This document shows, piece by piece, positions 13,116 to 28,309 of a stretch of 48,271 nucleotides of DNA. Below the pieces are notes generated by a model. The model was not told where the DNA came from, did not search any database, and was given only the letters and a program-made list of their open reading frames with translations. The stretch spans positions 1-48,271 of the forward strand of contig DATHCE010000220.1 of NCBI GenBank assembly GCA_035319685.1. Reading direction: 5' to 3'. Origin of the DNA: Bryobacteraceae bacterium. Its GTDB lineage: Bacteria > Acidobacteriota > Terriglobia > Bryobacterales > Bryobacteraceae. The position numbers and the translations under genes were made by a program. How positions within the stretch are numbered: position 1 is the first letter of the stretch; each line of letters starts with the position of its first letter.

Positions 13116-13192
13116 CGACCGCGCTCGTAGCGTTCGTTCTCTTAAGCGGGCGTGCTCGCGCCGCGATTCCGGCGGAGTGCGATCATGAAGGT

Positions 13193-13807
13193 ATGAAACT
13201 GGCCGCCGCGCTCGTGCCTCTTCTGTCGATGCCTTTCGCAGGCTCGGCCGCGGAAATTCCGAAAGGCACGCATGTGCTGCTGCGCATGATGAACTCCATC
13301 AACACGCGCACCGCCGCGGAAGGCGATCAGGTGTATCTCCAAACGGCCGTCCCGATCGCAGCCGGCGGCGAAATCGTGATTCCCGCCGGCAGCTACGTGC
13401 AGGGCGTCGTGTTGCTCGCCCGGCGCGGCGGCAAAGTCTCGGGCCGCGCCCAGTTGGGCATTCGTCTGGAAACGCTGACGCTCGCGAGCGGCAAGATGCT
13501 CAAGATCGCGCCGCGGCTGAACTCGGTCGATTCCAATGAAACCGGCCAAAAGGTCGAACGCGACGAGAATATCGTGAAGCAGGGCCCCGATTATGGAACC
13601 GATGCCCGCCGGATTGCGATTCTCGCGGGCACCGGAGGCGCCATCGGCGGCATGACGGATCGAAGTTGGACCGGCGCCGGCATCGGAGCGGGAGCGGGAA
13701 CCGCGGTCGGCTTCGCCACCACGCTTCTCACTCGCGGCAAAGACGTCGAACTGCGCCAGGGCTCGACCCTCGACATCGTATTCGACCGGCCGGTTACGGT
13801 CGAGTAA
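13193..13807 (+). CDS. secreted hypothetical protein: beta domain plus glycine-zipper segment
   Basis: Signal peptide MKLAAALVPLLSMPFAGSAAE. The pattern IPKGTHVLLRMMNSINTRTAAEGDQVYL..IVIPAGSYVQGVV resembles the kinase C-terminal domain. Gly-zipper segment ILAGTGGAIGGM..GAGIGAGAGTAVG. Confidence 0.6.
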   Translation: MKLAAALVPLLSMPFAGSAAEIPKGTHVLLRMMNSINTRTAAEGDQVYLQTAVPIAAGGEIVIPAGSYVQGVVLLARRGGKVSGRAQLGIRLETLTLASGKMLKIAPRLNSVDSNETGQKVERDENIVKQGPDYGTDARRIAILAGTGGAIGGMTDRSWTGAGIGAGAGTAVGFATTLLTRGKDVELRQGSTLDIVFDRPVTVE

Positions 13808-13867
13808 AGCGGGTCAGCAAATCCTCCGGCCAAAGTTGTGTATCCTACAAGCAACTCATTTCGTGCG

Positions 13868-14545
13868 ATGCGCATTCTGGTTGTGGCTGATCGGGGACTT
13901 GCCGACGTTGTTCCCCAGGCTCTGGAGCGGGAAGGTCATTGTGCGGCGCTCGCTCATTCGGAAAATGGCGCCGTTGAGATGGCGAAGGCACTGCCCTTCG
14001 ATGCCGTCGTGCTGGAGTATGCTCCTCCGGCACTCGATGGATTCAAAATCGCCCGATCCCTTTCTCAGGCCGGGATTCGCGCGCCGATCCTGATGCTGAT
14101 CTCCAAGGATGCGGTGCGCGACGCCGGCCGCAGGGTGACCGAGGCCGGCGCCGACGATTTTCTGGTCAAGCCGTTTTCGCTGGCGGAATTAACCGCGCGG
14201 CTGCGGACGATGGCCGGGCGCGGACAGCCTCGGGAATCCTCGCGCCTTCAGGTCGCCGATCTGACACTGGACCCGGCGAGGCACGAAGTTTTCCGCGGCG
14301 GCGTGCCGGTCGCGCTGACGCGCAAGGAGTTTCAGTTGCTCGAAATTCTGCTGCGCGACGCTGGCCGCGTGGTCCACCGCCAGGACCTGATGGAAGAGCT
14401 GTGGCCCGAGAGGGAGCAGGTCGAAAACAACATGCTCGATGCCTTCATCCGTCTTCTTCGGAGGAAGATCGATCGAGGACACGAGCCGAAGCTGATCCAT
14501 ACGGTCCGCGGCTTCGGGTATCGCCTGTCGGATGAATCTAAATAA
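13868..14545 (+). CDS. OmpR-family winged-helix response regulator with atypical (Asp-less) receiver
   Basis: Receiver plus Trans_reg_C layout (LTRKEFQLLEILL..VHTVRGFGYRL). By eye, the phosphoacceptor position reads VVLEYAPP where DLVLLDLxLP is expected, and the acidic pair reads VVADR. There is no adjacent histidine kinase. Confidence 0.85.
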   Translation: MRILVVADRGLADVVPQALEREGHCAALAHSENGAVEMAKALPFDAVVLEYAPPALDGFKIARSLSQAGIRAPILMLISKDAVRDAGRRVTEAGADDFLVKPFSLAELTARLRTMAGRGQPRESSRLQVADLTLDPARHEVFRGGVPVALTRKEFQLLEILLRDAGRVVHRQDLMEELWPEREQVENNMLDAFIRLLRRKIDRGHEPKLIHTVRGFGYRLSDESK

Positions 14546-14761: not shown

Positions 14762-15877
14762 TCAGCGCAAGGAGTACGTCAAGCCGAGCGTGAACTGGAA
14801 CGAGTTCTTCTTGAATCCCGGAGGCGGGTCGTTGAGGAACGCGTCGGTCGCGTTCAGGCTCACGCCCAGGCGCTTGTAGGTCGGCAACGTCAACCCCGCG
14901 CTGGCGATCGCCGAATACGCATTCGTATTGTTCCACGCCGGCGTCACCGACAGCTTCTGGTTGAACGCGATGCCGTGCACCAGCTTGCGCAGATAGGCTT
15001 CGGCGAACGTCGAGCCGATCAGGCTCTTATTGGCGCTCGATTTTGCGAACTGCTGATCGATGTAACTCATGCTGGCCTTCAGATCGAGGGTCTGATTGGC
15101 GTCTTTGATCGCCGTCCAGCCGATTCCGCCGCCGTAGCGCTGCTGCAAATCCAGGCCTTGCGAAAAATTATGATCGAAATCGGCCTGTCCGAAGCCGTAA
15201 ACGCGAGGAGAGAAATATTCATCGCGCTCGGCGGCGGCGTGATAGATCGAGGTCTTGAGCGTCGGGCTGCCGGGTTGCGAGACGGTGCCGTAGGATTCGG
15301 TGAAATCCACCAGGGTGCGGTTGCGCGCATCCAGCCAGTTTTCCGTAGGGATCGCGCGGACCAGACTGATGCCGGCGGTGAACGTCTCGCTATCCTGCGT
15401 GGCCTCCACCAGGCTCGCGCCGGCGGTAACCGTGCCGGACCAATCCTCAAAGAAACCCGGACTATGCATCACCGCCTTCTGGAACGCATCCGCGCTTACG
15501 ATGTTGCTCACATTCGCGACCGGGATCGATTGCGGCGGCGTGGCGCCCACTTCAATTTTCTGATCCGCCACGGTAATGGTTCCCTGCGGAACCGGCGCTT
15601 CATTTTTATGAACGATTTTGACGCCCTTCGGAATGACGGCGAATTTCTGGGAGGCGTGAAGTTCCCTGATATTTTTCCAATCGACTTTAATTTCGCCGAT
15701 CATGTCGCTCTTGAAGGTGATCTGGCCGCCGGCCGCGCTCACCAGATGGCCCACCAGCTTGTCGCCATTGGTGAAGATCAAAACATCCGGATCGGGTTTC
15801 GGCGCCTGCGCGTACATCACGCCCGCCGCGAAAAAAATTGCGAGACAGCCACTGGAAGATCTCTGAAACATGTTCAT
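14762..15877 (-). CDS. DUF481-family outer-membrane protein
   Basis: Signal peptide followed by an N-terminal soluble domain. The segment ..EDWSGTVTAGASLVEATQDSETFTAG.. and alternating beta-strand pattern ending ..FTLGLTYSLR are typical of the DUF481 (YdiY-like) family. Confidence 0.7.
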   Translation of the reverse strand: MNMFQRSSSGCLAIFFAAGVMYAQAPKPDPDVLIFTNGDKLVGHLVSAAGGQITFKSDMIGEIKVDWKNIRELHASQKFAVIPKGVKIVHKNEAPVPQGTITVADQKIEVGATPPQSIPVANVSNIVSADAFQKAVMHSPGFFEDWSGTVTAGASLVEATQDSETFTAGISLVRAIPTENWLDARNRTLVDFTESYGTVSQPGSPTLKTSIYHAAAERDEYFSPRVYGFGQADFDHNFSQGLDLQQRYGGGIGWTAIKDANQTLDLKASMSYIDQQFAKSSANKSLIGSTFAEAYLRKLVHGIAFNQKLSVTPAWNNTNAYSAIASAGLTLPTYKRLGVSLNATDAFLNDPPPGFKKNSFQFTLGLTYSLR

Positions 15878-15883
15878 TTCATT

Positions 15884-17011
15884 CTAACGAAGCAACCGGC
15901 AGCACTCGCGCGCGATTTCCCATTCTTCCTCGGCGTGGATCACCAGAATGCGCGGGTGCAGAAACTCGAACCTGGCTGCGACGATATCGCGCAAGGGCGC
16001 GCAATTTTCCCCGATACCCCCGGTGAACACGATTGCGTCCAGAGCACTCTCATGCGCGTCCGCGAGCGATCCAAGCATCGCGCCAATCTCGCGGCACAAA
16101 CGATGCGCGTAAATCTCGAAGGCGAGGCGCGCGCGTTGGTTTCCCTGTTCCATCGCTTCGAGAACGCGGCGCATATCGCCCGAAACGCCGGAGATCCCCA
16201 GCAGGCCCGATTCGCGGTTGAGAATTTCGTCAAGCTGCTCCGCGGTATACCCGCGATGCCGCAGCAGATAAATGATGATCGCCGGATCGATCGATCCGCT
16301 GCGGGCGCCCATCATGAGACCTTCGAGCGGCGTGAATCCCATGGTGGTGTCGACGCTTTTTCCATCGCGCACCGCGGCGAGCGACGCGCCGTTGCCGAGA
16401 TGGCAGGTGATGAGACGCAGATGCTTGCCCGGAATTTGCGCGCCCGGAATTTGCGCGGCCGGAATTTGGGCGCCCAGAATTTCCGCGGCGCGGCGCGAGG
16501 CGTATTGATGGCTGATGCCGTGAAACCCGTAGCGCCGGATACCGTGATCGAGCCATTCATAAGGACCGGGATAAACGTAGGCGGCGGGCGCGAGCGTCGC
16601 ATGAAAAGCCGAATCGAACACCGCGACTTGCGTGGCGTTGAAAATGCGCCCGGCGGTTTCAATCGCGGCCAGCTCGAATCGATTGTGCGCGGGGGCGACC
16701 TCCGCTGCCGCCGCGATCGCCGCGCGAACTTCGTCCGTCAGAATCGTGCTCTGGCGATATTTCGCGCCGCCGTGGACGATGCGATGGCCCACGGCGTCCA
16801 CCTTTCCGGGAACCGATCGGAGCAGCGGCGAAAGAATTTCGGGAATCGGGCGGCTATCGGTATCGACCTGCGCTTCCCACAACGGCTTCGGCGGATCAGA
16901 GGGCGGATCATTGGCCATCTCGGGGGCCATCTCGGGGGCCATCTCGGGGGAAATTTCATCGAGCCGGCATTTGAAAGTGCTGGAGCCTCCGTTCAGAACC
17001 AGAATTCTCAT
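15884..17011 (-). CDS. ackA: acetate kinase
   Basis: [40 protein letters not shown] and [11 protein letters not shown] 17011 forms an ATGA overlap with the phosphoketolase stop. The track ORF starts 9 nt further upstream, at 17020. Confidence 0.9.
16428..16487 (-). repeat. in-frame 15-bp x4 tandem repeat inside ackA ([20 protein letters not shown])
   Basis: Plus strand reads cccggaatttgcgcg cccggaatttgcgcg gccggaatttgggcg cccagaatttccgcg. Confidence 0.9.
16913..16948 (-). repeat. perfect in-frame 12-bp x3 tandem repeat inside ackA ([12 protein letters not shown])
   Basis: Plus strand reads ggccatctcggg three times. Confidence 0.95.
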
Positions 17012-19380
17012 GACGGCCATTTCCAGTCGCGGATTTCGGGCAGGTCGTCGCCATGCTCGGCGATGTACAGCTTGTGCTCGATCAGCTTATCGCGCAGCAG
17101 TTGCTTGAAATGTGCGCCGATGGGCTGCAAGCGCGGAACGCGGTCGATCACGTCGATGGCAAGATGGAAGCGATCGAGATCGTTGCGCACGGTCATATCG
17201 AACGGAGTGGTGGTCGTTCCTTCTTCCTTGTATCCGCGGACGTGCAGATTGTCGTGATTGGTGCGGCGATAGGTGAGCCGGTGAATCAGCCACGGGTAGC
17301 CGTGGAACGCGAACACGATCGGCTTGTTGGTGGTGAAAATCGAATCGAAATCATGATCGGCGAGGCCGTGCGGATGCTCGCTCGGCGGCTGAAGCGTCAT
17401 CAGATCGACGACGTTGACCGCTCGAATCCGGATGCCCGGCACATGCCGGCGCAGCAGATCGATTGCGCCCAGCGTTTCGAGCGTCGGAATGTCGCCGCAG
17501 CACGCCATAACGACGTCCGGCTCGCCCGCGTCATCGTTGCTCGCCCACTCCCAGATGCCGATTCCGGCGGTGCAGTGCTTGATCGCCGAATCCATGTCGA
17601 GATATTGCAGCGCGGGCTGCTTTCCCGCGACGATCACGTTCACATAATTGCGGCTGCGCAGGCAGTGGTCCGCGACCGAGAGCAGAGAGTTCGCATCCGG
17701 CGGCAGATAGACGCGCACGATCCCGGCTTTCTTGTTGACCACGATGTCGAGAAATCCCGGGTCCTGGTGGCTGAATCCGTTGTGATCCTGCCGCCACACG
17801 TGCGAGCTGAGCAGATAATTGAGCGACGCGATGGGCCTGCGCCAACCCACCGTAAGCGATTCCTTCAACCACTTGGCGTGTTGATTGAACATCGAATCGA
17901 CGATGTGAATAAAGGCCTCATAGCAGTTGAACAGGCCGTGCCGTCCGGTCAGCAGATAGCCTTCGAGCCAACCTTCGCAAAGATGTTCGCTCAACACTTC
18001 CATGACGCGGCCGTCGGGCGAGAGATGATCGTCGCCGGGAATGATCTGCGCCATCCAGTCGCGATCGGTCGCCTCGAACAGCGCGTTCAGCCGATTCGAG
18101 TTGGTCTCGTCCGGTCCCATCACGCGGAAATTTCGCGATTCCAGGTTCTCTTTCATGACGTCGCGCAGAAACTCGCCGAGCACGCGCGTGGCTTCGCCCA
18201 CGGTGGTTCCAGGCTTCGCCACGCCGACCGCGTATTTGCGGAAATCCGGCAGATGAAGGTCCTTGAGCAGCAGGCCGCCGTTGGCGTGCGGATTCGCGCC
18301 CATGCGCCGTGCGCCCTTGGGAGCCAGCTCGCGCAACTCCGGAATCAGGCTCCCGCCATCGTCAAACAATTCGTCGGCGCGATAGCTTTTCATCCATTCT
18401 TCGAGCAGTCTCAGGTGCTCCGGATTCGTGCGAACCTGATCGAGCGGAACCTGGTGAGCGCGCCATGTGCCTTCCACTGGTACGCCGTCGACGGTCTTCG
18501 GGCCGGTCCATCCCTTCGGCGAGACGAGCGCGATCATGGGCCAATGGGGCCGTTTCTCAACGCCGTGTTCGCGCGCGTCCTTTTGAATCGCGCGAATTTC
18601 GTTGACGACGTTTTCAAGCGTCTCTGCCATCGCCTGATGCATCGGCGCCGGGTCGCGGCCTTCGACGAAATGCGGCTCGTAGCCGACGCCGCGCAGAAAA
18701 TCGATCAATTCGTCCCGCCCGATCCGCGCGAGAATGGTGGGATTCGCGATCTTGTAGCCGTTTAGATGCAGAATCGGAATCACGGCGCCGTCGTGAACCG
18801 GATTGAGAAATTTGTTGGAATGCCAGCTCGCCGCCAACGGTCCGGTTTCGGCTTCGCCATCGCCGATCACGCAAATCGCCAGCAGATCGGGGTTGTCGAA
18901 CACCGCGCCGTGCGCGTGCAGCAGCGAATAACCGAGTTCGCCGCCTTCATGAATCGAGCCCGGAGTTTGCGCCGCCGCGTGGCTCGGGATGCCGCCGGGG
19001 AAGGAAAACTGCTTGAACAGGCGCTTCATCCCCTCGGCGTCTTCGGTGATGTTCGGGAACAGCTCGGAATACGAACCTTCCAGATACGTGTTGGCGACCA
19101 TCCCCGGGCCGCCGTGCCCCGGTCCGCAGATGTAAATCATGTCGAGGTCGTATTTCTTGATCAGCCGGTTCGCATGCGCGTAGATAAAATTCAAACCCGG
19201 CGTCGTTCCCCAATGGCCCAGCAAACGCGGCTTGATATCGTCGACCCGCAGCGGCCGTATCAGCAGAGGATTGTCATAAAGGTAAATCTGCCCGACCGAG
19301 AGATAATTCGCGGCGCGCCAATACGCGTCGATTTTACGAAGTTCGTCGTCAGCAAGTGGCACAGTCCCTTGGTACCACAC
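17008..19380 (-). CDS. xfp: xylulose-5-phosphate/fructose-6-phosphate phosphoketolase
   Basis: 790 aa. N-terminus ..[18 protein letters not shown].., [10 protein letters not shown] and GPGHGGP. The overall length and motifs match the XFP family. GTG start at 19380. Confidence 0.95.
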
Positions 19381-19418
19381 TCGTATGGCAGCGAGATTAA
19401 CCGATGCATACTAGAGAA

Positions 19419-19874
19419 ATGCGCATCGTGCTCGGTTCTGATCATGCCGGATTCGAAATGAAGCAGGATCTGGTTTCCTTCGTCCGGAAACTGGGTCATG
19501 AGGTTTTGGATGTGGGCACGGACAGCACCGCGCCGGTGGACTACCCGGATTACGCCGAAGCGGTGGGCCAGGCGATGCGGTCGCAGCAAGCCGAGCGCGG
19601 CATTCTGATCTGCGGCAGCGGCGTCGGCGCGTCCATCGCCGCGAACAAGCTCCCCGGAGTGCGCGCCGGGTTGTGCCACGACTGCTACTCGGCGCATCAA
19701 GGCGTGGAGCACGACGCGATGAATGTTCTGGTGCTGGGATCGCGCATTATCGCCGCGGAACTGGCGCACGATCTGGTGCAGCGTTTTCTGAGCGCGCAAT
19801 TCACGCACGAAGAGCGACATGTCCGGCGTCTCGCCAAAGTCGACAAACTGGAACAGCGCTTCCAGTGCAAGTAG
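19419..19874 (+). CDS. rpiB: ribose-5-phosphate isomerase B (RpiB/LacA/LacB family)
   Basis: [15 protein letters not shown].., [16 protein letters not shown] and NVLVLGSR. Divergent from xfp. Confidence 0.9.
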
Positions 19875-20126
19875 CGACGCAAAGTAGCGACGCTGCGCGG
19901 TTTCGCGCAAAGCCATCTCCCGTGGCCCCCGGGGAAATTTCTCTCTGTAACGCACACAAAAGATGACCTTTAGGATACCCACGCCCTTGCGCTCCAGCCC
20001 GGGGTTGGAACAGGAGCTTCCAGTCAAAACGGCCGAGCTCGCTGCTGGGTTATAACACCCAGGGCCTGTGATTTGGCGCATAGTTTTTCCCTTATCCTAG
20101 GGGAATTTCTTTTCTTAACACATACA

Positions 20127-20139
20127 AAACGTTACGTTT
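20127..20139 (+). promoter_or_regulatory. palindrome AAACGT-T-ACGTTT upstream of the mtrC-like gene
   Basis: Perfect 6+1+6 inverted repeat in an AT-rich stretch, about 60 nt upstream of ATG 20200. It matches no regulator consensus that I recognise. Confidence 0.25.
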
Positions 20140-20199
20140 GGGTGACGCGCGCCTTTGGATTGCAGCGTGCGCTGGGGGTCCCGGGGAGTTGACTCTAAC

Positions 20200-22332
20200 A
20201 TGCGGATCCCATTTTTACATTCGGCAGGACTTCGGCGTTTTGCGATGCTCAGTGTGGTCGCGGGCGCCGCCATCTTGAGCAGTGCGCCTCGTGCGACGTT
20301 TCCCAAAACAGACAAGGCGCATTATAAGGACCAAGCGACGCTTGATTTCGTGCTTCCAGGCTTAGTGGTCACCATTAATTCTGCTTCTATTGCCAGTAAC
20401 GGTACCATCCAAACTAACTTCACACTCACAGACCCTTCAGGACTCGTGCTGGATCGGCTAGGGGTCAATACACCCGGAGCGGTTTCCGTCAGCTTTGTGA
20501 TTGGCGCGATTCCACAAGGCGCGGCGAAGGTTGGTTCCGGCCAATACATCAGCTATATCACCCATCAGGTGACGGCAACCGCCGGAGCGGCTTGCCCCGC
20601 CTCGATTTGCGTGGGAGGTACTGCTACGCAGCCGACCAGCGATTCCGGCGGAACCTATGTGGCGAACGCCGATGGCAGCTACACGTACACCTTCGGCAAT
20701 AAGGCACCGACGGGATTCGATCCGACGATCACAACGACCATCGGCATTTATGCGTCCCGCAACCTTTCCGCCTTTGGTCTGGCGACCTATTATGGAGATG
20801 CCCTCTTCAACTTCGTGCCGAACGGATCCAAGGTGACCGTGGTGCGCGATGTGGTGGACACCACCGCCTGCAATCAGTGCCACGATCCTCTGGCCCTGCA
20901 CGGCGGATCGCGCCAGCTCACCGGGCTGTGCATCATCTGTCACCAGCCGCAGAATACGGACCCGAATACCGGCAACCTGCTGGACTTTAAGGTCATGATC
21001 CACAAGCTCCACGACGGAGCGTATCTGCCCAGTGTAGTGGCCGGCGGGAAGTATGAGATTATCGGCTACATGAATTCGATCAGCGATTTTTCGACGATCG
21101 TTTTCCCGGACGATGTTACCAACCAGACCACGACTCCGAACGGCGTCCGCGATTGCGCCAAGTGCCACACTTCGGCCGCTTCGCAGTCCGGGCAGTACAT
21201 GACGAACCCCACGCGCGTGGCGTGCGGCTCCTGTCACGACGACGTAAATTTCGCCACCGGCGTGAATCACCCGGGCGGCCCGCAGTTTGACGACAACGAG
21301 TGCTCCACCTGCCACATTCCGAAAGGCGAGATGGAGTTCGACGCGTCGATCGCGGGCGCGCACACCATTCCGACGCTTTCGACACAGTTGCCCGGCACGA
21401 CGTTCGCGCTGCAGAAGGTGACCAATGGCGTGGCGGGTAAATCGCCGACGGTGACCTTCCTGTTGACCAACAAAGCCGGTGCCGCGATACCCCCGAGCTC
21501 AATGGCCAGCCTGTCGCTGGTGATCACAGGCCCGACGACGGACTATCCTTCGTCCACAAGCGAAAGCGCAACCGGCGCGACCTGCTCAGCGTCCGGCGTC
21601 TGCACGTACACGTTCAAGTACGTGATCCCGTCGACGGCGACCGGCACGTACACCATCGGTATCGAGGGCTACGCGAACATCACTCTCGATGCGGGCACGA
21701 CCATCGCGCAAACGGTTCGCGATGACGGCCTGAACCAGGTCATCAATTTCTCGGTGGATGGTTCGCCGGTGACGCCGCGGCGCACCGTGGTCGAGCTGGC
21801 AAATTGCAACGTGTGCCACAACAATCTGGCGCTGCATGGCGGCCTTCGCAACAACGTGACCTACTGCCCGGTGTGCCACAATCCGAACGGGACCGACTCC
21901 TCGGAGCGGCCGGTAACGGCGGGACCGGCGCAGGGAATCAACTTCGCGCTGCTGGTCCATAAGATCCACACCGGAACCAATCTGACCCAGAACTTTACCG
22001 TATATGGGTACATGGGCTCGGTCAACAATTTCAACGGCGTCCTGTTCCCCGGCAACCTGGCGAATTGCGACAAGTGCCATGCGACCGGCTCGAACGAGCT
22101 GCCGATCGCCGCTGTGTTGCCGGTAGTGAATCCGCAGGGATTCATCAGTCCGGCCGGACCGACCACGTCGGCATGCACGGCGTGTCATGATCCGGAGGCG
22201 ACTTCTTCTCACGCTCTGGCCAACACCACAATTCTCGGCGAATCGTGCGTGGTTTGCCATGGGCCGGACGCGCAGTTCTCAGTAGATTCGGTGCATACGA
22301 TCGAGATTCCGGCAGCCAGTCCGAACCAGTAA
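20200..22332 (+). CDS. mtrC: outer decaheme c-type cytochrome, MtrC/OmcA-like
   Basis: Ten CXXCH motifs fall in two blocks of five. Block one is CNQCH, CIICH, CAKCH, CGSCH, CSTCH. Block two is CNVCH, CPVCH, CDKCH, CTACH, CVVCH. Each block is preceded by a heme-free ~200-aa segment. A signal peptide is present, but there is no lipobox Cys. Confidence 0.8.
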   Translation: MRIPFLHSAGLRRFAMLSVVAGAAILSSAPRATFPKTDKAHYKDQATLDFVLPGLVVTINSASIASNGTIQTNFTLTDPSGLVLDRLGVNTPGAVSVSFVIGAIPQGAAKVGSGQYISYITHQVTATAGAACPASICVGGTATQPTSDSGGTYVANADGSYTYTFGNKAPTGFDPTITTTIGIYASRNLSAFGLATYYGDALFNFVPNGSKVTVVRDVVDTTACNQCHDPLALHGGSRQLTGLCIICHQPQNTDPNTGNLLDFKVMIHKLHDGAYLPSVVAGGKYEIIGYMNSISDFSTIVFPDDVTNQTTTPNGVRDCAKCHTSAASQSGQYMTNPTRVACGSCHDDVNFATGVNHPGGPQFDDNECSTCHIPKGEMEFDASIAGAHTIPTLSTQLPGTTFALQKVTNGVAGKSPTVTFLLTNKAGAAIPPSSMASLSLVITGPTTDYPSSTSESATGATCSASGVCTYTFKYVIPSTATGTYTIGIEGYANITLDAGTTIAQTVRDDGLNQVINFSVDGSPVTPRRTVVELANCNVCHNNLALHGGLRNNVTYCPVCHNPNGTDSSERPVTAGPAQGINFALLVHKIHTGTNLTQNFTVYGYMGSVNNFNGVLFPGNLANCDKCHATGSNELPIAAVLPVVNPQGFISPAGPTTSACTACHDPEATSSHALANTTILGESCVVCHGPDAQFSVDSVHTIEIPAASPNQ

Positions 22333-22361
22333 TGGCGAGTGACCGACCACGGAGGAAAACA

Positions 22362-23318
22362 ATGGAACGGCCGCTATGTTCGTTCACGATCCGATACGGC
22401 GTAGCGGCCGTATTTTTCGCCCTGCGGCTCGCGGGACAAGCGCCGGCAACCGAGCCGGCCAAGCAGGAAGCCGCGAAAGCCGAAACGAGACCCCCGGCGA
22501 CCTACGCAGGAACAGAAGCCTGTCTGGTGTGCCACGAAGAGGTGGGCGGGAAGTTCGCAACCAATCCGCACCACGTTCTTGAAACGCAGAAGGGCGGACC
22601 CTGGGCGGGAAAAACCTGTGAGGCGTGCCATGGGCCGGGCAGCCGGCACGCAGAGTCGGTTGATCCCAAGGATATTCGCGATCCCGTGAGGCTTGCGTCC
22701 GCGGAATCCGAGCGCGTTTGTCTCACATGTCATCTCAATACCCGCGTGCATGGAGGGCATATCGAGAGCAGCCACACCAAGAATCAGGTAGTGTGCGTGA
22801 GCTGCCACACGATGCACGAGACGCCGGAACAACTGGTGCCGCGAACGGCCGACGGGATCAACGCCAAGTGCGCGGGCTGTCACGTGTCGGTGTGGGCCAG
22901 TTTTCAAAGGCCGTATCGTCATAAGCTGCCCGAAGGCGCGATGAGCTGCGTCGACTGTCACGACCCGCACGGGCGTCCCGTGACCACGCAGGCCCGCTCG
23001 GTGATCGGCAATCAGGCCGGTTGCTATGAGTGCCATGGCGATAAGCGCGGACCGTTCATCTTCGAGCACGAACCGCTGCGCACCGACGGGTGCACGGCGT
23101 GCCACATGCCGCATGGATCGGCAAATCCGCGAATGCTGACGCGCGCGAACATCGAGACGGTGTGTCTTGAATGTCACGCCAACATCAGCAGCCCGAAACC
23201 GGCGCTGGGTGGAGTGCCTCCGGCGTTTCACGATCTGCGCAGTCCGGTGTATCAGAACTGCTCGGTGTGCCACGTGAAGGTCCACGGATCGAACGTAGAC
23301 AGGACGTTTCTACGATGA
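22362..23318 (+). CDS. mtrA: periplasmic decaheme c-type cytochrome, MtrA/DmsE family-like
   Basis: 318 aa with a signal peptide and ten CXXCH motifs (CLVCH, CEACH, CLTCH, CVSCH, CAGCH, CVDCH, CYECH, CTACH, CLECH, CSVCH). GGAGGA lies 5 nt upstream of ATG 22362. The alternative ATG 22332 overlaps the mtrC-like stop (TAATG). Confidence 0.85.
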   Translation: MERPLCSFTIRYGVAAVFFALRLAGQAPATEPAKQEAAKAETRPPATYAGTEACLVCHEEVGGKFATNPHHVLETQKGGPWAGKTCEACHGPGSRHAESVDPKDIRDPVRLASAESERVCLTCHLNTRVHGGHIESSHTKNQVVCVSCHTMHETPEQLVPRTADGINAKCAGCHVSVWASFQRPYRHKLPEGAMSCVDCHDPHGRPVTTQARSVIGNQAGCYECHGDKRGPFIFEHEPLRTDGCTACHMPHGSANPRMLTRANIETVCLECHANISSPKPALGGVPPAFHDLRSPVYQNCSVCHVKVHGSNVDRTFLR

Positions 23319-25399
23319 GACGCCTCACATTTTTAGCGCTCTGTTTGAGCCTCGCGGGATGGGCGGCTGACGATCTGCAGCAGACCGCGGCATCGGCGGA
23401 TCCATCGGCGAATCAGGCCGCTTCATCCACTGCGCCTCCGGCCCAGGCGCCCGCGCAAAGCACAACTCAGGCTGCGCCTCCCGCGCAAGCTCCGCCGCAA
23501 AGTCCAACCCAGGCCGCGCCTCCGCCCCCGCAAGCGCCCGCGGGATCCGAATCGATCACCGGCAGCATCGACCTGGGTTATCGATTCGTGACCGGTATCG
23601 GCGGCAGCAATCTGGCGTATCGCAGCATTGTCGATCTCGGCGAGGGTCCGCGATTGCTGGGTTTGAACGCGACCATCCAGGATCCCACCAAGCGCTTCTT
23701 CGACCGGCTGACTGTCAGCGGAATCGGCTGGGGCGGCGACCCCTATACCACGGCGCACGTGGATGCGTCCAAGCAGCGCTGGTACCGTTTCACGTTCGAT
23801 TACCGCAGCATCGCGTATTTCGACGCGCTGCCGTCCTTCGCGAATCCCTTCGCGGGAAACGGAATCCTGCTCGATCAACAATCCTTCGACATCCGGAAAC
23901 GAATGGCGAATTTCGCGCTGGAGCTGCGGCCCGCGTCGCACGTGATTCCCTATCTTCAGTACTCGCGGGATTCCGATCACGGAACCGGCGTCACCGATTT
24001 TGTTTCGAGCGAGATCGCGACGTTTCCGGTCGCGAATCTCACTAGCGAGCACACCGACAATTATCGCGGCGGCGTCCGCTTCGAGTTTCCGAAGTTCCAC
24101 GCGACGCTCGAAGAGGGCGCGACGGTCTTCCAGGACAACGAACAGGTTACCTATAGCGGCCAGAACCCCGGAAACTTTCCCGCGCCGTTCTTCGGCGAGA
24201 CGCTCGATTTGACCAAACTGCTGGAAGCCTACGGGATTCGGGGGACCAATCCTTACTCGCGCGTGATGCTGACGGCGACGCCCTGGAGCTGGCTCGATCT
24301 GTACGGCCAATTTTCCTACAGCATGGGCCAGACCAACGTGAATTACACGCAGGCGAACAACGGCGAGTTCGTCGATCTGAGCTCGCTGCTGTTCTATATG
24401 AGCGAACAGGATCTTTTGACGGGTGCGGCGAAGCAGCCGCATACTTCGGGCACGGTCGGACTCGAGATGCGCCCGCTCAAACACATCCGGCTGGTCGAGA
24501 GCTGGACCACGGATCGCCTGCACACAGCATCATCCTCCGACCTGGCGCAGGCGCTTGTGGCGGCTTCGGGCGCCATCACGGAGCCGCCCTCGCTTTCCAC
24601 ATTCCGGCTGGTGGACAACTACAGCCAGCAGTCCTTCGACATTTTCTACGACGTGACGTCGAAGCTCACGCTCCACGGCGGTGAGCGCTACACCTACGGC
24701 GACACCACGGTGCCTCCGTTTTATGGAACGGGGTTTGAAACGGGCTCGCTCAGCCGGCAAGCCGGCGTGGCCGGCGCGAACCTGCATCTGAACCAGAAAA
24801 TCAGCGCGAATTTCGATTTTGAAGGCGGCAATTCGAATTCGGTGTATTATCTAACCAGCCTTCAGGATTACCGGAAATATCGCGCGCGGGTGCGCTATCA
24901 GCCCATCCAATCGCTCTCGATCACCTGGAACCTGAATTTCCTCAACAACGATAATCCGATTCCGGGCGTGAATTACCGTTTCTCGAGCAAAGACGACGGA
25001 GTCTCGCTGCTGTGGACCGCCGGCAAGCGCTTCAGCATTCTGGGAGACTACGCGCGGACGACCATCTACTCGGATATTCTGTACGTCGCTCCGCCGCTCA
25101 ACACCAGCACCCAATCGATTTATTGGGAGGACGCGCATCAAGCCAGCGCGCTGCTGGATTTCAATCTGCTGCAGATCGGCAAGCGGACGCTGCACCTTTC
25201 GGCCGGGGGTTCGCTGTTTACAGGACACGGAACCCGTCCGACGCGTTTTTATCAACCGATGGCGAAGCTGGTTTTCCCACTCGCCAATCATATCGACTGG
25301 ACGACGCAGTGGAGCTGGTACGGATTCAATGAGCCGATCTACCAGTTCGAAGGCTTTCGAACCACGGTCGTCACCACCGGCCTGCGCTTTACGCGATAG
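23315..25399 (+). CDS. mtrB: decaheme-associated outer-membrane beta-barrel, MtrB/PioB family-like
   Basis: 694 aa with signal peptide MRRLTFLALCLSLAGWA and no heme motif. It shows abundant alternating aromatic beta-strand patterns (YRFTFDYRSIAYF, YRGGVRFEF, RARVRYQP..). ATGA overlap with the mtrA-like stop. Size and position match MtrB. Confidence 0.7.
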   Translation: MRRLTFLALCLSLAGWAADDLQQTAASADPSANQAASSTAPPAQAPAQSTTQAAPPAQAPPQSPTQAAPPPPQAPAGSESITGSIDLGYRFVTGIGGSNLAYRSIVDLGEGPRLLGLNATIQDPTKRFFDRLTVSGIGWGGDPYTTAHVDASKQRWYRFTFDYRSIAYFDALPSFANPFAGNGILLDQQSFDIRKRMANFALELRPASHVIPYLQYSRDSDHGTGVTDFVSSEIATFPVANLTSEHTDNYRGGVRFEFPKFHATLEEGATVFQDNEQVTYSGQNPGNFPAPFFGETLDLTKLLEAYGIRGTNPYSRVMLTATPWSWLDLYGQFSYSMGQTNVNYTQANNGEFVDLSSLLFYMSEQDLLTGAAKQPHTSGTVGLEMRPLKHIRLVESWTTDRLHTASSSDLAQALVAASGAITEPPSLSTFRLVDNYSQQSFDIFYDVTSKLTLHGGERYTYGDTTVPPFYGTGFETGSLSRQAGVAGANLHLNQKISANFDFEGGNSNSVYYLTSLQDYRKYRARVRYQPIQSLSITWNLNFLNNDNPIPGVNYRFSSKDDGVSLLWTAGKRFSILGDYARTTIYSDILYVAPPLNTSTQSIYWEDAHQASALLDFNLLQIGKRTLHLSAGGSLFTGHGTRPTRFYQPMAKLVFPLANHIDWTTQWSWYGFNEPIYQFEGFRTTVVTTGLRFTR
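23432..23545 (+). repeat. in-frame ~42-bp repeats encoding a Pro/Ala/Gln-rich linker at the mtrB-like N-terminus
   Basis: APPAQAPAQSTTQA / APPAQAPPQSPTQA / APPPPQAPAGS, directly after the signal peptide. Confidence 0.7.
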
Positions 25400-25408
25400 C
25401 CCAACTAT

Positions 25409-26437
25409 ATGAACTTCGAAAACAGCCCTCTATTGGTGATTTGGGAAGTAACTCAAGCCTGCGATCAGCGGTGCGCCAACTGCCGGTCGACGGTCCATTC
25501 CGAGCGCGACCCGCTCGAACTGACGACGGAGGAAGGATTCCACCTGCTCGAGCAGGTGCGCTCCTTCGGCAACCCGCTCATGGTTTTTACGGGCGGAGAT
25601 TTGCTGAAGCGTCCCGACATTTATGAACTGATCGGGAAGAGCGTGGGCGTCGGCTTGCGCACTAACGTGACGCCCAGCGCCACCCAAAGGATGACCGACA
25701 GTGCGATCGACCGGTTCCAGGAGTGCGGCGTCTCCCGGATGGCCATCGGCCTGGACGGGCCGGACGCGGAAACGCACGACGGAATCCGCGAATGGCCCGG
25801 AGGCTATGATCGCGCCATGGCTGCGCTCCGGCGCGCGCAGAGGATCGGCCTGGAGACCCAGGTCCAGACCGTCGTCACCCAGCGCAATCGCCAGATGCTT
25901 CCCCAAATCGCGGAGCGCGTGTTCGAGGTCGGGGCGAAGCTGTGGAGCGCCTTTTTTTCGGTCTCGGGCGGCCATGACGAGGATCTCACCGGGGAGGAGT
26001 ACGAGAGGGTCTTCGAGACCCTGTTCGCTTTGTCGCGCCTGGCGCCCTTCGATATCCGCACCACCGAAGGCACGCATTACCGGCGCTACGTCGCCCAGCG
26101 CCTGAAAGCCGAACACATGCGGCGCGCGCACTGGCGGACCGCGCCGGTCGGCGACGGCAAGGGATTCGTGTTCGTCTCTCATACCGGCGAGATTTTCCCG
26201 AGCGGTTTTTTGCCCGTTTCCGGCGGCAACGTGCGCGAGCAGTCCATTGTCGAGGTGTATCGCAACCACGAGCTGTTCAAGCTGCTTCGGGATCCGCACA
26301 GGCACGAAGGCAAGTGCGGGCGGTGCGAATATCACCGCATCTGCGGAGGCTCGCGAGCGCGGGCTTACGCGCTCACCGGGAATTACCTGGCGGAAGATCC
26401 GCGCTGCATTTATCAGCCTGTGGCGAAAACCTCCTGA
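25409..26437 (+). CDS. radical SAM/SPASM domain protein (TIGR04053-like, function unknown)
   Basis: The CX3CX2C motif lies in VIWEVTQACDQRCANCRS, followed by FTGGDLLKRPD. The C-terminal Cys-rich segment GKCGRCEYHRICGGSRARAY..DPRCIY is SPASM-like. The gene starts 9 nt after the mtrB-like stop. Confidence 0.85.
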   Translation: MNFENSPLLVIWEVTQACDQRCANCRSTVHSERDPLELTTEEGFHLLEQVRSFGNPLMVFTGGDLLKRPDIYELIGKSVGVGLRTNVTPSATQRMTDSAIDRFQECGVSRMAIGLDGPDAETHDGIREWPGGYDRAMAALRRAQRIGLETQVQTVVTQRNRQMLPQIAERVFEVGAKLWSAFFSVSGGHDEDLTGEEYERVFETLFALSRLAPFDIRTTEGTHYRRYVAQRLKAEHMRRAHWRTAPVGDGKGFVFVSHTGEIFPSGFLPVSGGNVREQSIVEVYRNHELFKLLRDPHRHEGKCGRCEYHRICGGSRARAYALTGNYLAEDPRCIYQPVAKTS

Positions 26438-26509
26438 GCCGGAAATGAGGGGTTAAAGGGCGAGCTTTCACACAGACTCTGGACCGGCCGGCATCGCCGT
26501 CGCGTCCTC

Positions 26510-26560
26510 GTTTACTGTAAATCCGTGTTTGCTGTAAATCTTTGTTTACTGTAAATCTTT
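26510..26560. repeat. 17-bp x3 tandem repeat spanning the stop codon of the S10 peptidase gene
   Basis: gtttactgtaaatccgt gtttgctgtaaatcttt gtttactgtaaatcttt. The third unit encodes the last four codons plus the stop (KDLQ*) on the minus strand. Confidence 0.9.
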
Positions 26561-28144
26561 CGGAATGGCGCCGGACATGAATTCGCCCACGTCGTGCTTC
26601 AGCTTTGTGTGCGAATCGCTGTCGATGTACAGCATGTGGCCGGCCTGGTAGAAATCCCAGGTGATCTGCTTGTGCATCTCGGGACCCAGGCCCATGTGCT
26701 TGAAAGTGTACTCGACGGCATAATACGGCGTCGCGAGATCGAAGTACCCGGCGGCGATCATCAGCTTCATATAAGGATTCTTGGTGAATGCGTTGCGGAG
26801 CAGGGCGGTGGTGTCGCCGAAACCGTTCTGCGCCTGATAATCCCAGGGCTGAATCCCGCCGGAGGGATAGTAAAACATGTCGGTTTTGTATCCCAGCTCG
26901 TCGCGAATGTAGCTCAGGAACATCGCGGTGAACGGCGGCGTGATCTGGGTGCTCGACGGATCATAGCCGCCGGCTTCGGTAAGTGGCGCGGGACCCGCCA
27001 GGCGCCCGTCATACCGGCCGATGACTTCATGCTCGTTGTGCATCAGCTCGCGCGTAAAATGCTGCACGTCCCAGCGCAGGTTGTTTTCGTCGAGATATTT
27101 GGCGTCGAGGCCGGTGTATCGCACCAGCTTGTCGATCACGGCCTTGCGCTGCGCGGGGGAAAGATCATCGCCCTGATTCAGCGCGGCGGCGTAATCCCCG
27201 AGCGCGAAGCCTTGCACTTCGTTGAGGAACGATTTCAGATCCTTCTTCTGCAAATCCGCCGCGACCTTTTTGTGATACCAGGCGTCGGCCGCATAGGTGG
27301 GCATCTCCAGCTCGTAGACCAGATCGTCGCTGCGGCTCCAGATGGTTTCGAGATTGAGGGTCGTGCCGATCAGGATCACGCCGTTGAAGGCCATGCCGCG
27401 ATCGATCAGGTAACCGGCGAGTCCGGCGGCGCGGAACGTCCCGTAGCTTTCGCCGGCGATGAACAGCGGCGATTTTTCGCGGTCGCTGCGCGTCACGTAC
27501 ATGCGCATGAACTCGCCGACGGATTGAATATCTCCGGAAACGCTATTCATGCGGCGCGCGATCGCCACGGTTCTCGCGCGGCTGTAGCCGGTGCCCACCG
27601 GATCGATGAACACGAGATCGGTCAGGTCGAGCCAGGTGTCCTGATTGTCTTTCAATCGATACGGCGGAGGCGGCATGCCGCCGTTCGGCATCAACATGGG
27701 ACTCCGCGGACCCATGCCTCCGATGTGCACCCACATCGACGCCGAACCGGGACCGCCGTTGAAGCAGAATGTGAGGGGCCGTTTCGACGGATCGGCGCCG
27801 TCGAGCGTGTAGGCCATGTAAAAGATGTGCGCCTCGGTCTGGCCGGAGGAATCCCGGAGCGGCATCTGCGCGAGGGTCGCGGTGTAGTTGAGGGTCTTGC
27901 CGTTGACGGTGATGGAGTGATGCGTCACCACCGGGGTTTCGTCGATGTCGCCGCCGATCGCGGGGCCGGGACCGGGAATGCCGCCGCGTCCGCCGCGTCC
28001 TCCGGGAGCCTCGGGTTCGGGCGCGGGCGCGGGCGCGGGAGGCTGCTGCGCTGCGGGAGCCTGGGCCGCCGCGCCTCGACCCTGCGTCGGAGCCTGTTGG
28101 GCCAGCATGAAAGCAGGGATCGCAAGCCAGAGAAATGCCCTCAT
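26546..28144 (-). CDS. S10-family serine carboxypeptidase-like peptidase
   Basis: Signal peptide, FNGGPGSAS, and the nucleophile context AGESYGTF. Confidence 0.8.
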   Translation of the reverse strand: MRAFLWLAIPAFMLAQQAPTQGRGAAAQAPAAQQPPAPAPAPEPEAPGGRGGRGGIPGPGPAIGGDIDETPVVTHHSITVNGKTLNYTATLAQMPLRDSSGQTEAHIFYMAYTLDGADPSKRPLTFCFNGGPGSASMWVHIGGMGPRSPMLMPNGGMPPPPYRLKDNQDTWLDLTDLVFIDPVGTGYSRARTVAIARRMNSVSGDIQSVGEFMRMYVTRSDREKSPLFIAGESYGTFRAAGLAGYLIDRGMAFNGVILIGTTLNLETIWSRSDDLVYELEMPTYAADAWYHKKVAADLQKKDLKSFLNEVQGFALGDYAAALNQGDDLSPAQRKAVIDKLVRYTGLDAKYLDENNLRWDVQHFTRELMHNEHEVIGRYDGRLAGPAPLTEAGGYDPSSTQITPPFTAMFLSYIRDELGYKTDMFYYPSGGIQPWDYQAQNGFGDTTALLRNAFTKNPYMKLMIAAGYFDLATPYYAVEYTFKHMGLGPEMHKQITWDFYQAGHMLYIDSDSHTKLKHDVGEFMSGAIPKDLQ

Positions 28145-28224
28145 TCTGTTTCACCTCGAAAAAAAGAGTCCATTCCGGTCATGATATTCCAATTCGCCGT
28201 GTACCTGCACCCGTCGCGGATGGA

Positions 28225-28309
28225 AAAGGCCCGCCGCAGGCTCAAAAGGTCCGCCGCAGGCTCGAAAGGCCCGCCGCAGGCTCAAAAGGCCCGCCGCAGG
28301 CTCGAAAGG
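28225..28309. repeat. 20-bp x4.25 tandem array in a divergent intergenic region
   Basis: aaaggcccgccgcaggctca / aaaggtccgccgcaggctcg / aaaggcccgccgcaggctca / aaaggcccgccgcaggctcg / aaagg. It lies between the S10 peptidase start (28144) and the esterase-like gene start (28327). Confidence 0.95.

Follow-up and report, generated by a model that had tools for sequence, protein, structure and literature searches.

Gene content and junctions of the locus

Within the window (the whole 48,271-nucleotide stretch of Bryobacteraceae DNA that was analyzed), positions 20200-25399 hold three consecutive open reading frames, all on the + strand. The mtrC-like gene (20200..22332) encodes a 710-aa decaheme cytochrome with a signal peptide and a predicted surface location; the mtrA-like gene (22362..23318) encodes a 318-aa decaheme cytochrome with a signal peptide and a predicted periplasmic location; and the divergent mtrB-like gene (23315..25399) encodes a 694-aa precursor comprising a signal peptide, a linker of ~60 aa rich in Pro, Ala and Gln, and a predicted 26-strand outer-membrane beta-barrel. 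For the mtrC-like gene, the N termini of homologues (“MRIP...”) favor the start at 20200 over the start at 20245 assigned by the gene caller.

The mtrA stop and mtrB start, as read from the sequence, overlap in an ATGA at 23315..23318 (+ strand). The overlap is ATGA in 70 of 72 related loci and GTGA in the other 2, and judging from this arrangement mtrA and mtrB are translationally coupled. A preliminary description of this DNA had extended the coupling to all three genes through a TAATG junction at 22330-22334; the mtrA/mtrB part of that proposal holds, whereas the TAATG probably does not contain the mtrA start. It is also incompatible with the 318-aa product given in the same description, as translation from ATG 22332 would yield 328 aa and translation from ATG 22362 yields 318 aa. 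A GGAGG ribosome-binding site (22351..22355, + strand) lies 6 nt upstream of ATG 22362. In the closest relative, locus L006, GGAGG occurs at the equivalent place, and mtrA begins at the homologous Met, with no in-frame ATG upstream. The real mtrA start is thus probably ATG 22362, and mtrC and mtrA are therefore most likely separated by a 29-nt gap rather than overlapping.

Immediately upstream of the mtrC-like gene lies rpiB (19404-19874), and a radical-SAM/SPASM gene (25409..26437, + strand) begins 9 nt past the mtrB-like stop. These two genes intervene between the operon and the phosphoketolase and S10 peptidase genes, which had been described as flanking it but are each one gene beyond the immediate neighbors. 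Acetate kinase is also encoded nearby and, with phosphoketolase, constitutes a fermentative pathway. The radical-SAM/SPASM protein scores 407 bits against TIGR04053 (cut-off 395) and 300 bits against the model for AhbD, a heme b synthase (below the cut-off of 500). Its gene occupies the same position in loci L001, L002, L006 and L007 and lies 3.5 kb off in L035, but it is missing from the other ~75 related loci; this AhbD-related gene is possibly an accessory to the operon, of which its membership is uncertain. A scan of the 48-kb window for CXXCH found at least two motifs only in the mtrC-like and mtrA-like open reading frames, and no inner-membrane or periplasmic electron donor, including a CymA-type quinol dehydrogenase, is encoded within it. 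The nearest relatives of the locus are Terriglobia/Bryobacterales MAGs, in agreement with the Acidobacteriota-like context recognized earlier, and the host lineage of the operon is a soil or peat acidobacterium.

Two decaheme cytochromes of the OmcA/MtrC and MtrA/DmsE families

The mtrC-like product contains exactly 10 CXXCH motifs, five within residues 224-368 and five within 536-683, and a heme-free segment precedes each block. Its domains alternate between heme-free beta (~56-205 and ~400-518) and pentaheme (~221-387 and ~533-698). The NCBI OmcA/MtrC model TIGR03507 matches the full-length protein at 501 bits (cut-off 209), PF22113 (MtrC/MtrF domains II/IV) also matches, and sequence matches in the PDB are to MtrF, UndA, OmcA and MtrC. 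An AF2 model shows four domains (pLDDT 80.5), and the top 16 PDB matches identified by Foldseek are all OmcA, UndA, MtrC or MtrF (E 1.9e-27 to 1.3e-10), with no grouping among unrelated multiheme families. In an alignment with Photobacterium MtrC, all 20 heme Cys and a domain-III Cys pair (residues 462/468) are matched; the pair is kept in 88% of homologues. The first gene product is thus a four-domain decaheme cytochrome of the OmcA/MtrC family, as had been proposed from its motif layout. The protein has no lipobox, as previously noted, and this absence is clade-wide; no Cys occurs before residue 132, and N-terminal lipidation is therefore impossible.

The MtrA-like protein contains 10 CXXCH motifs in 318 aa and scores 235.9 bits against TIGR03508 (DmsE family; cut-off 192.2). 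Its residues 48-311 match the MtrA chain of the Shewanella Mtr complex (6r2q_A) with an E-value of 6.6e-37, and it has 31% aa identity to MtrA of the canonical Photobacterium mtrCAB cluster. Against the GSU2203 decaheme family model it scores 190.6 bits, below the cut-off of 325. The second gene encodes an MtrA/DmsE-family decaheme cytochrome, which bears out its earlier assignment.

A divergent MtrB-like barrel

Translated from ATG 23315, the mtrB-like product contains no CXXCH, and its sole Cys is residue 10, within the signal peptide. Mature MtrB-like proteins lack the N-terminal CXXC across the clade and usually lack any cysteine. Residues 20-80 are 90% P/A/Q/S/T, and part of this linker is encoded by an imperfect 42-nt tandem repeat identified by TRF (23430..23527, + strand; 2.4 copies). 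The linker, which varies in length, is present in essentially all 76 MtrB-like homologues inspected and lies on the periplasmic side. Both the missing cysteines and the repeat linker had been reported in the preliminary description.

Neither TIGR03509 nor PF11854, the models for MtrB/PioB, matched the MtrB-like protein, and its closest relatives likewise did not reach the curated thresholds. An HMM search of the PDB with the MtrB-like family profile found no MtrB, and hhalign against one single MtrB sequence was not significant. Against 33 canonical MtrB/PioB sequences, hhalign of the family gave a colinear match over 552 columns with 97.7% probability (E 1.8e-12). Four relatives (P0024, P0048, P0089 and P0028; ~50% identical) pass the Pfam PF11854 threshold with colinear coordinates.

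The AF2 model of the MtrB-like protein has 26 strands, within the 26-28 anticipated. As in the MtrB crystal structure (PMC7198977), strands 1 and 2 flank a short helix, strands 2-4 are short, the periplasmic turns are tight and alternate loops are long. The best PDB match of the model by Foldseek is 6r2q_B of the Shewanella Mtr complex (E 3.5e-16, TM 0.62-0.66). The next matches, 22-strand TonB-dependent receptors (E 2e-8 or weaker, TM ~0.4), trail it by eight orders of magnitude in E-value. In the structure-based alignment, the protein is ~13% identical to MtrB.

That the barrel is instead a large porin of unrelated origin that joined the MtrC/MtrA pair independently is very improbable: the failed curated models, the PDB search and the 13% identity would fit such an origin, as would the description of peat EET systems as sequence-divergent and convergently evolved in a 2026 preprint (bioRxiv 10.64898/2026.05.27.727921), but the full-length colinear profile match, the four relatives above the Pfam threshold, the shared strand number and strand-1/2 helix, the wide margin of the structural match, the clear homology of the partner cytochromes to MtrA and MtrC, and the placement of the Group 5 barrel in the MtrB tree by Baker et al. 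(PMC8805035) all argue against it. Based on sequence profiles and the predicted fold, we regard the third gene product as a remote but genuine MtrB/PioB homologue with a 26-strand barrel. The failure of the MtrB/PioB models, which the preliminary description had named as a refuting outcome, does not refute the reading of the locus as an MtrCAB-type conduit, because remote-homology and fold evidence supports MtrB; the OmcA/MtrC and DmsE models gave the expected matches.

Conservation, known systems and direction of electron flow

MtrB-like relatives are encoded by 318 GTDB species representatives. In all 72 informative loci from Bryobacterales/Terriglobia genomes, mtrC is present with the cluster and the order is C-A-B, as in the window. 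The mtrCAB unit is also kept in unrelated surroundings (locus L003 compared with the window), and mtrC, mtrA and mtrB are inherited as a unit.

Based on host clade, organization and annotation, the locus matches the Group 5 type of MtrCAB described for Acidobacteriia/Bryobacterales (Baker et al. 2022, mBio, PMC8805035). Shared features are the mtrC-mtrA-mtrB order, a single mtrC, the absence of a nearby CymA-type gene, and the 4-nt mtrA/mtrB overlap, which is identical in the published coordinates of Bryobacteraceae Spst337 (PMC8805035). In Group 5, MtrB is annotated “hypothetical protein” and CymA is not nearby (PMC8805035); here too, NCBI models recognize MtrC and MtrA, and the barrel is a “hypothetical protein.” Whereas a tetraheme cytochrome lies directly downstream of mtrB in 5 of 5 Group 5 genomes (Baker et al., PMC8805035), the window has the radical-SAM/SPASM gene there instead, and some 31-33 of the 77 related loci, the closest relatives among them, also lack the tetraheme cytochrome. 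Given the taxonomy and the shared SPRUCE and Stordalen MAG sources, the Group 5-type locus is very probably the same as the Bryobacterales Mtr-like conduit named “EET2” (Fiorito et al. 2026, bioRxiv 10.64898/2026.05.27.727921).

Like Shewanella MtrCAB (S. baltica 6R2Q; S. oneidensis MR-1), the locus has three components in the same gene order and 10 + 10 hemes. Its MtrC shares the four-domain fold and has a Cys pair in domain III, its MtrA agrees in size and heme spacing, and its barrel has 26 strands, with short N-terminal ones and the strand-1/2 helix. Unlike the Shewanella system, it lacks the MtrC lipobox, the N-terminal CXXC of MtrB (and any cysteine in the mature barrel), omcA/mtrDEF paralogues and cymA; its domain-III pair is a CX5C, the P/A/Q-rich linker precedes the barrel, and barrel identity is low. 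In the gammaproteobacterial Photobacterium cluster, mtrA and mtrB are separated by 10 nt rather than overlapping by 4 nt. The Fe(II)-oxidizing PioAB/MtoAB systems share an MtrA-family decaheme cytochrome and an MtrB/PioB-family barrel, and they too are not known to carry the CXXC of gammaproteobacterial MtrB; however, they occur in lithotrophs or phototrophs without an MtrC-type surface cytochrome, which is always present in this cluster. The Geobacter Pcc (OmbB-OmaB-OmcB, GSU2203-type) follows the same logic of porin, periplasmic multiheme and outer multiheme cytochrome, but all three proteins fall short of every Geobacter family threshold, and the surface cytochrome is of OmcA/MtrC type rather than an OmcB-type lipoprotein.

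By analogy with the solved Shewanella complex, the MtrA-like protein would sit inside the MtrB-like barrel, and electrons would leave the periplasm through a series of 20 bis-His hemes and reach the surface MtrC-like protein, which may reduce an insoluble or extracellular acceptor such as Fe(III)/Mn(IV) minerals or redox-active organic matter. The presence of a surface MtrC makes outward, reductive flow the more probable direction on this analogy. We put at roughly 85% the probability that positions 20200-25399 hold an mtrC-mtrA-mtrB operon of a lineage-specific Bryobacterales/Terriglobia (Acidobacteriota) type encoding an outer-membrane electron conduit that would operate reductively.

A reductive conduit whose natural acceptor is particulate or dissolved redox-active organic matter (humic quinones) or a soluble shuttle, rather than a metal oxide, is a possible variant that we hold tentatively. 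The domain-III Cys pair, so widely kept among the homologues, is linked to flavin binding in Shewanella MtrC/OmcA. By their record titles, the relatives are mostly peat, bog, fen and soil MAGs, and the Bryobacterales Mtr-like conduit is transcribed in ombrotrophic peat, a setting almost free of dissolved Fe(III)/Mn(IV) for which peat organic matter has been proposed as acceptor (bioRxiv 10.64898/2026.05.27.727921). Against an exclusively organic acceptor, the cultured Bryobacterales member Paludibaculum fermentans is reported, as an organism, to reduce Fe(III) (PMC8407742). Metal and organic acceptor classes need not exclude each other, since Shewanella MtrC is promiscuous.

Inward flow, in which extracellular Fe(II), reduced humics or a partner cell would supply electrons to the periplasm as in PioAB/MtoAB, is unlikely. 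The multiheme chain of Mtr systems is reversible in principle, and the missing CymA-type dehydrogenase would fit this direction. To our knowledge, however, oxidative MtrAB-type systems lack an MtrC partner, which accompanies this cluster in every informative locus. MtrA/MtrB homologues are oxidative in Rhodopseudomonas and Sideroxydans and do not form a clade separate from reductive MtrAB (PMC8805035), but the host clade is heterotrophic, fermentative genes lie near the operon here, a cultured Bryobacterales member reduces Fe(III) (PMC8407742), and transcription occurs in anoxic deep peat, which offers few oxidants to lithotrophs (bioRxiv 10.64898/2026.05.27.727921).

The preliminary description overstated the novelty of an acidobacterial Mtr conduit, since Bryobacterales MtrCAB had already been published as Group 5 (2022) and EET2 (2026 preprint). 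The locus is a further example of this already described, lineage-specific MtrCAB and not a novel type of conduit.

The MtrC-like and MtrA-like cytochromes

Gene 1 (20200-22332, + strand; mtrC-like) encodes a 710-aa protein, and the ORF listing and motif count agree with the preliminary description in assigning it exactly 10 CXXCH motifs in two blocks of five (residues 224, 244, 319, 342, and 368; residues 536, 556, 623, 659, and 683), with a heme-free stretch before each block. A public gene caller places the start at 20245 (695 aa); we favor the start at 20200 because the N termini of homologues read MRIP.... Against the NCBIfam model of the OmcA/MtrC family (TIGR03507), the protein scores 501.4 bits (cut-off 209.3) across profile positions 3-672 of 672, and PF22113 (MtrC/MtrF domain II/IV) from Pfam matches it twice. 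AlphaFold2, given 42 database homologues as input and no hemes, predicted a four-domain layout of beta, helical-heme, beta, and helical-heme domains (pLDDT 80.5, pTM 0.76). When we used Foldseek to compare this model with PDB structures, the best 16 matches were exclusively OmcA, UndA, MtrC, and MtrF (E 1.9e-27 to 1.3e-10), with TM scores of 0.53-0.66 over 15 full-length chains; beyond these 16, E falls off to ~6e-4. The four-domain MtrC/OmcA layout that had been read from the sequence is thus reproduced in the model, and the cytochrome does not group with unrelated multiheme families. All 20 of the 20 heme cysteines align with the canonical MtrC of a Photobacterium mtrCAB cluster, as does a cysteine pair in domain III (C462/C468) that 88% of clade homologues retain. 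These results show that gene 1 encodes an OmcA/MtrC-family decaheme cytochrome.

Shewanella-type MtrC is a lipoprotein with a lipobox cysteine, whereas the earliest cysteine of the gene 1 product is residue 132; among clade homologues, a simple pattern search identified a lipobox-like motif in just 6 of 65. No PEP-CTERM or other C-terminal anchor is visible at the C terminus, which ends ...HTIEIPAASPNQ. Domain I carries an additional CX4C pair (CPASIC, residues 132-137; window 20593-20610) that is missing from all 65 aligned relatives.

Gene 2 (22362-23318, + strand; mtrA-like) encodes a 318-aa protein with 10 CXXCH motifs. Its match to MtrA/DmsE, initially proposed from size and motif density, is borne out by the DmsE/MtrA family model TIGR03508 (235.9 bits, cut-off 192.2, profile positions 1-257 of 258) and by MtrA of the solved Shewanella baltica Mtr complex (6r2q_A, E 6.6e-37).

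Both gene junctions had been described as translationally coupled, through a TAATG between genes 1 and 2 and an ATGA between genes 2 and 3. The first does not fit a 318-aa gene 2 product. The start codon for a product of that length is the ATG at 22362 (+ strand), 6 nt 3' of a GGAGG, and in the closest relative gene 2 starts at the homologous methionine, with no in-frame ATG upstream; on this evidence, a 29-nt gap most likely lies between genes 1 and 2. The ATGA overlap of genes 2 and 3 is confirmed, and the corresponding overlap in related loci is ATGA in 70 of 72 and GTGA in the other 2 of 72; mtrA and mtrB are coupled.

A divergent MtrB-like barrel

In the ORF listing, gene 3 (23315-25399, + strand) encodes a 694-aa protein with zero heme motifs, and its sole cysteine lies inside the signal peptide, so the mature protein is cysteine-free. 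The OmcA/MtrC and DmsE models matched genes 1 and 2; in contrast, the corresponding MtrB/PioB models (TIGR03509 and PF11854) matched neither gene 3 nor its closest relatives. An HMM profile of the gene 3 family searched against PDB sequences returned noise and did not find MtrB, phmmer with gene 3 against the PDB returned nothing, and hhalign of the gene 3 family against one Photobacterium MtrB sequence gave a probability of 2.5%. We also scanned more distant full-length representatives from a search of 1.84 billion proteins (family proteins P0184-P0247) with Pfam; PF11854 signal was essentially absent, so this route did not reveal a gradual transition in sequence toward canonical MtrB.

Taken alone, the failure of the curated models and of the PDB profile search would refute an MtrB reading. 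It is overturned by three independent lines of evidence: PF11854 matches in relatives, alignment-to-alignment comparison, and fold. Within the gene 3 family, PF11854 matches at E ≤ 1 in just 10 of 42 members; when scanned individually, four of these 10, with ~50% identity to gene 3 (P0024, P0048, P0089, and P0028), score above the Pfam threshold, at 25-33 bits and with colinear coordinates.

For the second line, canonical MtrB came from a 2.1-Mb Photobacterium replicon, the sole record found by TBLASTN of gene 2 against plasmids, whose MtrB scores 551 bits on TIGR03509. A canonical alignment was built from 33 of the 69 MtrB/PioB proteins that we gathered from genera including Vibrio, Aeromonas, and Shewanella. 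When hhalign compared the gene 3 family alignment with it, the two matched along 552 colinear columns, essentially the whole barrel, with a probability of 97.7% and an E value of 1.8e-12; significance appeared only with the 33-sequence alignment.

For the third, AlphaFold2 modeled gene 3 with moderate confidence (pLDDT 70.7) as a barrel with 26 DSSP strands, in keeping with the large beta-barrel anticipated for it. The model places a short helix (residues 100-103) between strands 1 and 2, strands 2-4 are 7-10 residues long, and one face has tight turns and the opposite face long loops. The same features, including the capping helix and the short early strands, are described for the MtrB crystal structure (PMC7198977). 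With Foldseek, the top match of the model in the PDB is MtrB itself (6r2q_B, E 3.5e-16, TM 0.62/0.66), ahead of 22-strand TonB-dependent receptors (E 2e-8 or weaker, TM ~0.4). Based on sequence profiles and the predicted fold, gene 3 is assigned as a divergent MtrB, a remote homologue of MtrB/PioB.

The preliminary description had pointed out that the barrel carries a Pro/Ala/Gln-rich linker and lacks the N-terminal CXXC. The linker is real and is encoded in part by a 42-nt repeat (23430-23527); a low-complexity P/A/Q-rich linker of variable length occurs in essentially all of the 76 clade MtrB homologues inspected. An N-terminal CXXC is found within the first 150 residues in 0 of these 76, most of which are without any cysteine, whereas Shewanella-type MtrB has this motif and the consensus of the canonical MtrB/PioB alignment includes CxxC. 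The missing MtrC lipobox, the missing MtrB CXXC, and the P/A/Q linker, all confirmed here, are properties of the clade and are not peculiar to the window locus.

The C terminus of gene 3 (window 25355-25399) reads ...GLRFTR and the family consensus ...GLRxxR; the canonical MtrB alignment, unlike gene 3, has an aromatic residue at or beside the C terminus. An aromatic residue in this position is common in proteobacterial outer-membrane proteins.

Conservation and surroundings of the operon

Clustered at 90%, the gene 3 family has >765 members; at 50%, it has 1,706 representatives. Relatives are encoded by 318 GTDB species genomes, of which the best 80 belong without exception to Bryobacteraceae, Solibacteraceae, Bryobacterales, or unclassified Terriglobia MAGs; peat and soil are the source of many of them. 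All 72 of the 72 related loci holding the three genes have them in the order C-A-B on a single strand. The closest genome, a Terriglobia MAG (78% identity), shares synteny through DUF481, ackA, xfp, rpiB, mtrCAB, and the radical-SAM gene, and a further locus (L003) has the same three genes in an entirely different neighborhood, which argues that mtrC, mtrA, and mtrB act as one unit. In four loci, tandem mtrC pairs with 9-10 hemes each lie 5' of mtrA (L040:1149-5934, L065:854-5864, L071:1297-5834, and L076:1196-5834).

The phosphoketolase and S10 peptidase genes had been named as the neighbors of the operon; this is corrected here, as rpiB adjoins it upstream and a radical-SAM/SPASM gene downstream. 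The latter (25409-26437, + strand) starts 9 nt past the mtrB stop and belongs to the TIGR04053 family (407 bits, cut-off 395); its second-best model is that of the heme b synthase AhbD, at 300 bits, under that model's cut-off. The gene also follows mtrB in loci L001, L002, L006, and L007, lies 3.5 kb downstream in L035, and does not occur in the remaining related loci. The gap from mtrB is 9-24 nt for the window and its nearest relatives. The gene may simply be a neighbor; any role in supplying heme under anaerobic conditions is speculative.

In about 44-46 of 77 related loci, the position directly after mtrB is occupied by an ORF for a ~375-aa tetraheme cytochrome (e.g., L035:8918-10036 and L053:8914-10083); none was found there in the window, its closest relatives, or the remainder of the 77. 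Besides genes 1 and 2, no ORF in the 48-kb window has ≥2 CXXCH motifs. Shewanella-type MtrCAB is linked to a CymA/NapC-type quinol dehydrogenase and periplasmic carriers, whereas no such linked genes were found in the 48-kb window; they could lie elsewhere in the genome. Two of the closest relatives of the window have, ~5 kb downstream of mtrCAB, a three-gene cluster absent from the window (L001:16933-20413 and L002:16923-20403, - strand), encoding a cytochrome b (Ni_hydr_CYTB-like), a 370-aa multiheme protein with a weak MtrC/MtrF domain match, and a 485-aa NapC/NirT-like multiheme protein. This cluster is a candidate inner-membrane electron-input module.

On either side of the operon lie housekeeping genes; mobile elements, RNAs, and respiratory partners are absent from these flanks, and neither Rfam families nor tRNAs were found in scans covering the full window. 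A promoter/terminator scan of 19300-26800 gave fewer matches than shuffles did. GC content is 57-62% for the cluster and averages ~61% for the window; the composition profile shows no clear island signature.

Directly upstream of mtrC, the block 14762-19874 is syntenic with L001 and L002 and consists of DUF481, ackA, and xfp (- strand), followed by rpiB (+ strand). DUF481 is an outer-membrane barrel family, and xfp encodes phosphoketolase; judging from these gene assignments, a phosphoketolase-to-acetate fermentative route (ackA, xfp) appears to adjoin the putative electron-export system. The ackA gene (15884-17020, - strand) contains in-frame tandem repeats at 16427-16487 (15 nt x 4.1) and 16913-16950 (12 nt x 3.2, 100% identity) that encode AQIP(A/G) and PEMA peptide repeats, and its NCBIfam match starts only at residue ~72. 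Tandem repeats also lie at both ends of the S10 peptidase gene (26546-28144, - strand): one at 26510-26560 (17 nt x 3.0) overlaps its 3' end by ~15 nt, and one at 28224-28309 (20 nt x 4.3, 92% matches) lies between it and an esterase-like gene. Farther out, 5-9 kb upstream of the operon, 11193-14545 (+ strand) encodes a Ser/Thr protein kinase (640 aa), a 204-aa protein with no family match, and an OmpR-type response regulator; no evidence links these three genes to the operon.

Relationship to known systems and proposed function

The reading of the three genes as an MtrCAB-type conduit is supported by the cytochrome family models, by the remote homology and fold of the barrel, and by conservation of the unit. 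Mtr-type conduits had been described as barely characterized in Acidobacteriota; this clade has, however, already been reported, in 2022 and again in 2026. Baker et al. 2022 (PMC8805035) described MtrCAB of their Group 5 in Acidobacteriia/Bryobacterales only, with MtrB listed as an NCBI "hypothetical protein," a 4-nt MtrA/MtrB overlap, no CymA nearby, no duplication of mtrC, and a tetraheme cytochrome directly after mtrB in 5 of 5 genomes. A 2026 preprint (bioRxiv 10.64898/2026.05.27.727921) reported that MAGs from SPRUCE and Stordalen share the Bryobacterales system and that it is transcribed through deep peat. Judged from its Bryobacterales host, unannotated barrel, single mtrC, and lack of a nearby CymA, the window system resembles Group 5; it is a further member of this clade, which is known bioinformatically, and the locus adds little new in principle.

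The window differs from Group 5 in having a radical-SAM/SPASM gene, and no tetraheme cytochrome, after mtrB; four related loci, not including the window, differ in their tandem mtrC. Across the larger genome set, the published Group 5 gene content fails on both counts: the tetraheme cytochrome is not always downstream, and mtrC is duplicated in some loci. The branch of the window may have lost the tetraheme cytochrome, and the AhbD-like gene that follows mtrB there could signal that its conduit is fed differently, for example by another periplasmic donor and with a co-expressed oxygen-independent heme maturation step supplying 20 hemes under anoxia; the non-lipidatable MtrC and the cysteine-free, P/A/Q-tethered MtrB that it shares with the rest of the clade would imply assembly and anchoring unlike those of Shewanella. 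We consider this scenario improbable.

Three other systems were considered. A Geobacter Pcc or GSU2203-type conduit was rejected because scores were below threshold (190.6 bits for gene 2 on the GSU2203 family model, cut-off 325). A PioAB/MtoAB reading was rejected because MtrC is present, and a DmsEFAB-type reading because no DmsAB-like genes lie nearby.

By analogy with the Shewanella structure, the MtrA-like protein would sit inside the MtrB-like barrel, and a 20-heme path would run to MtrC at the surface, carrying electrons outward to insoluble acceptors such as metal oxides or organic matter. The conduit is predicted to mediate extracellular electron transfer (reduction of Fe(III), Mn(IV), or an electrode), for which the indirect support is from published work: the transcription in deep peat noted above, and the reduction of Fe(III) by Paludibaculum fermentans, a cultured member of the Bryobacterales (PMC8407742).

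Neither a lipid anchor on MtrC nor a CXXC in MtrB is required for the architecture, as their absence throughout the clade shows, and this bears on how the complex is assembled. Because the curated MtrB/PioB models miss the barrel of this clade, iron-cycling screens that demand an MtrB match will undercount such systems, a consideration relevant to the 318 species-level genomes with barrel relatives. In soils and peat, where Bryobacterales and related Terriglobia are abundant, an Mtr-type conduit would allow these bacteria to respire iron minerals or redox-active organic matter, and respiration of this kind affects carbon turnover and methane suppression in wetlands.
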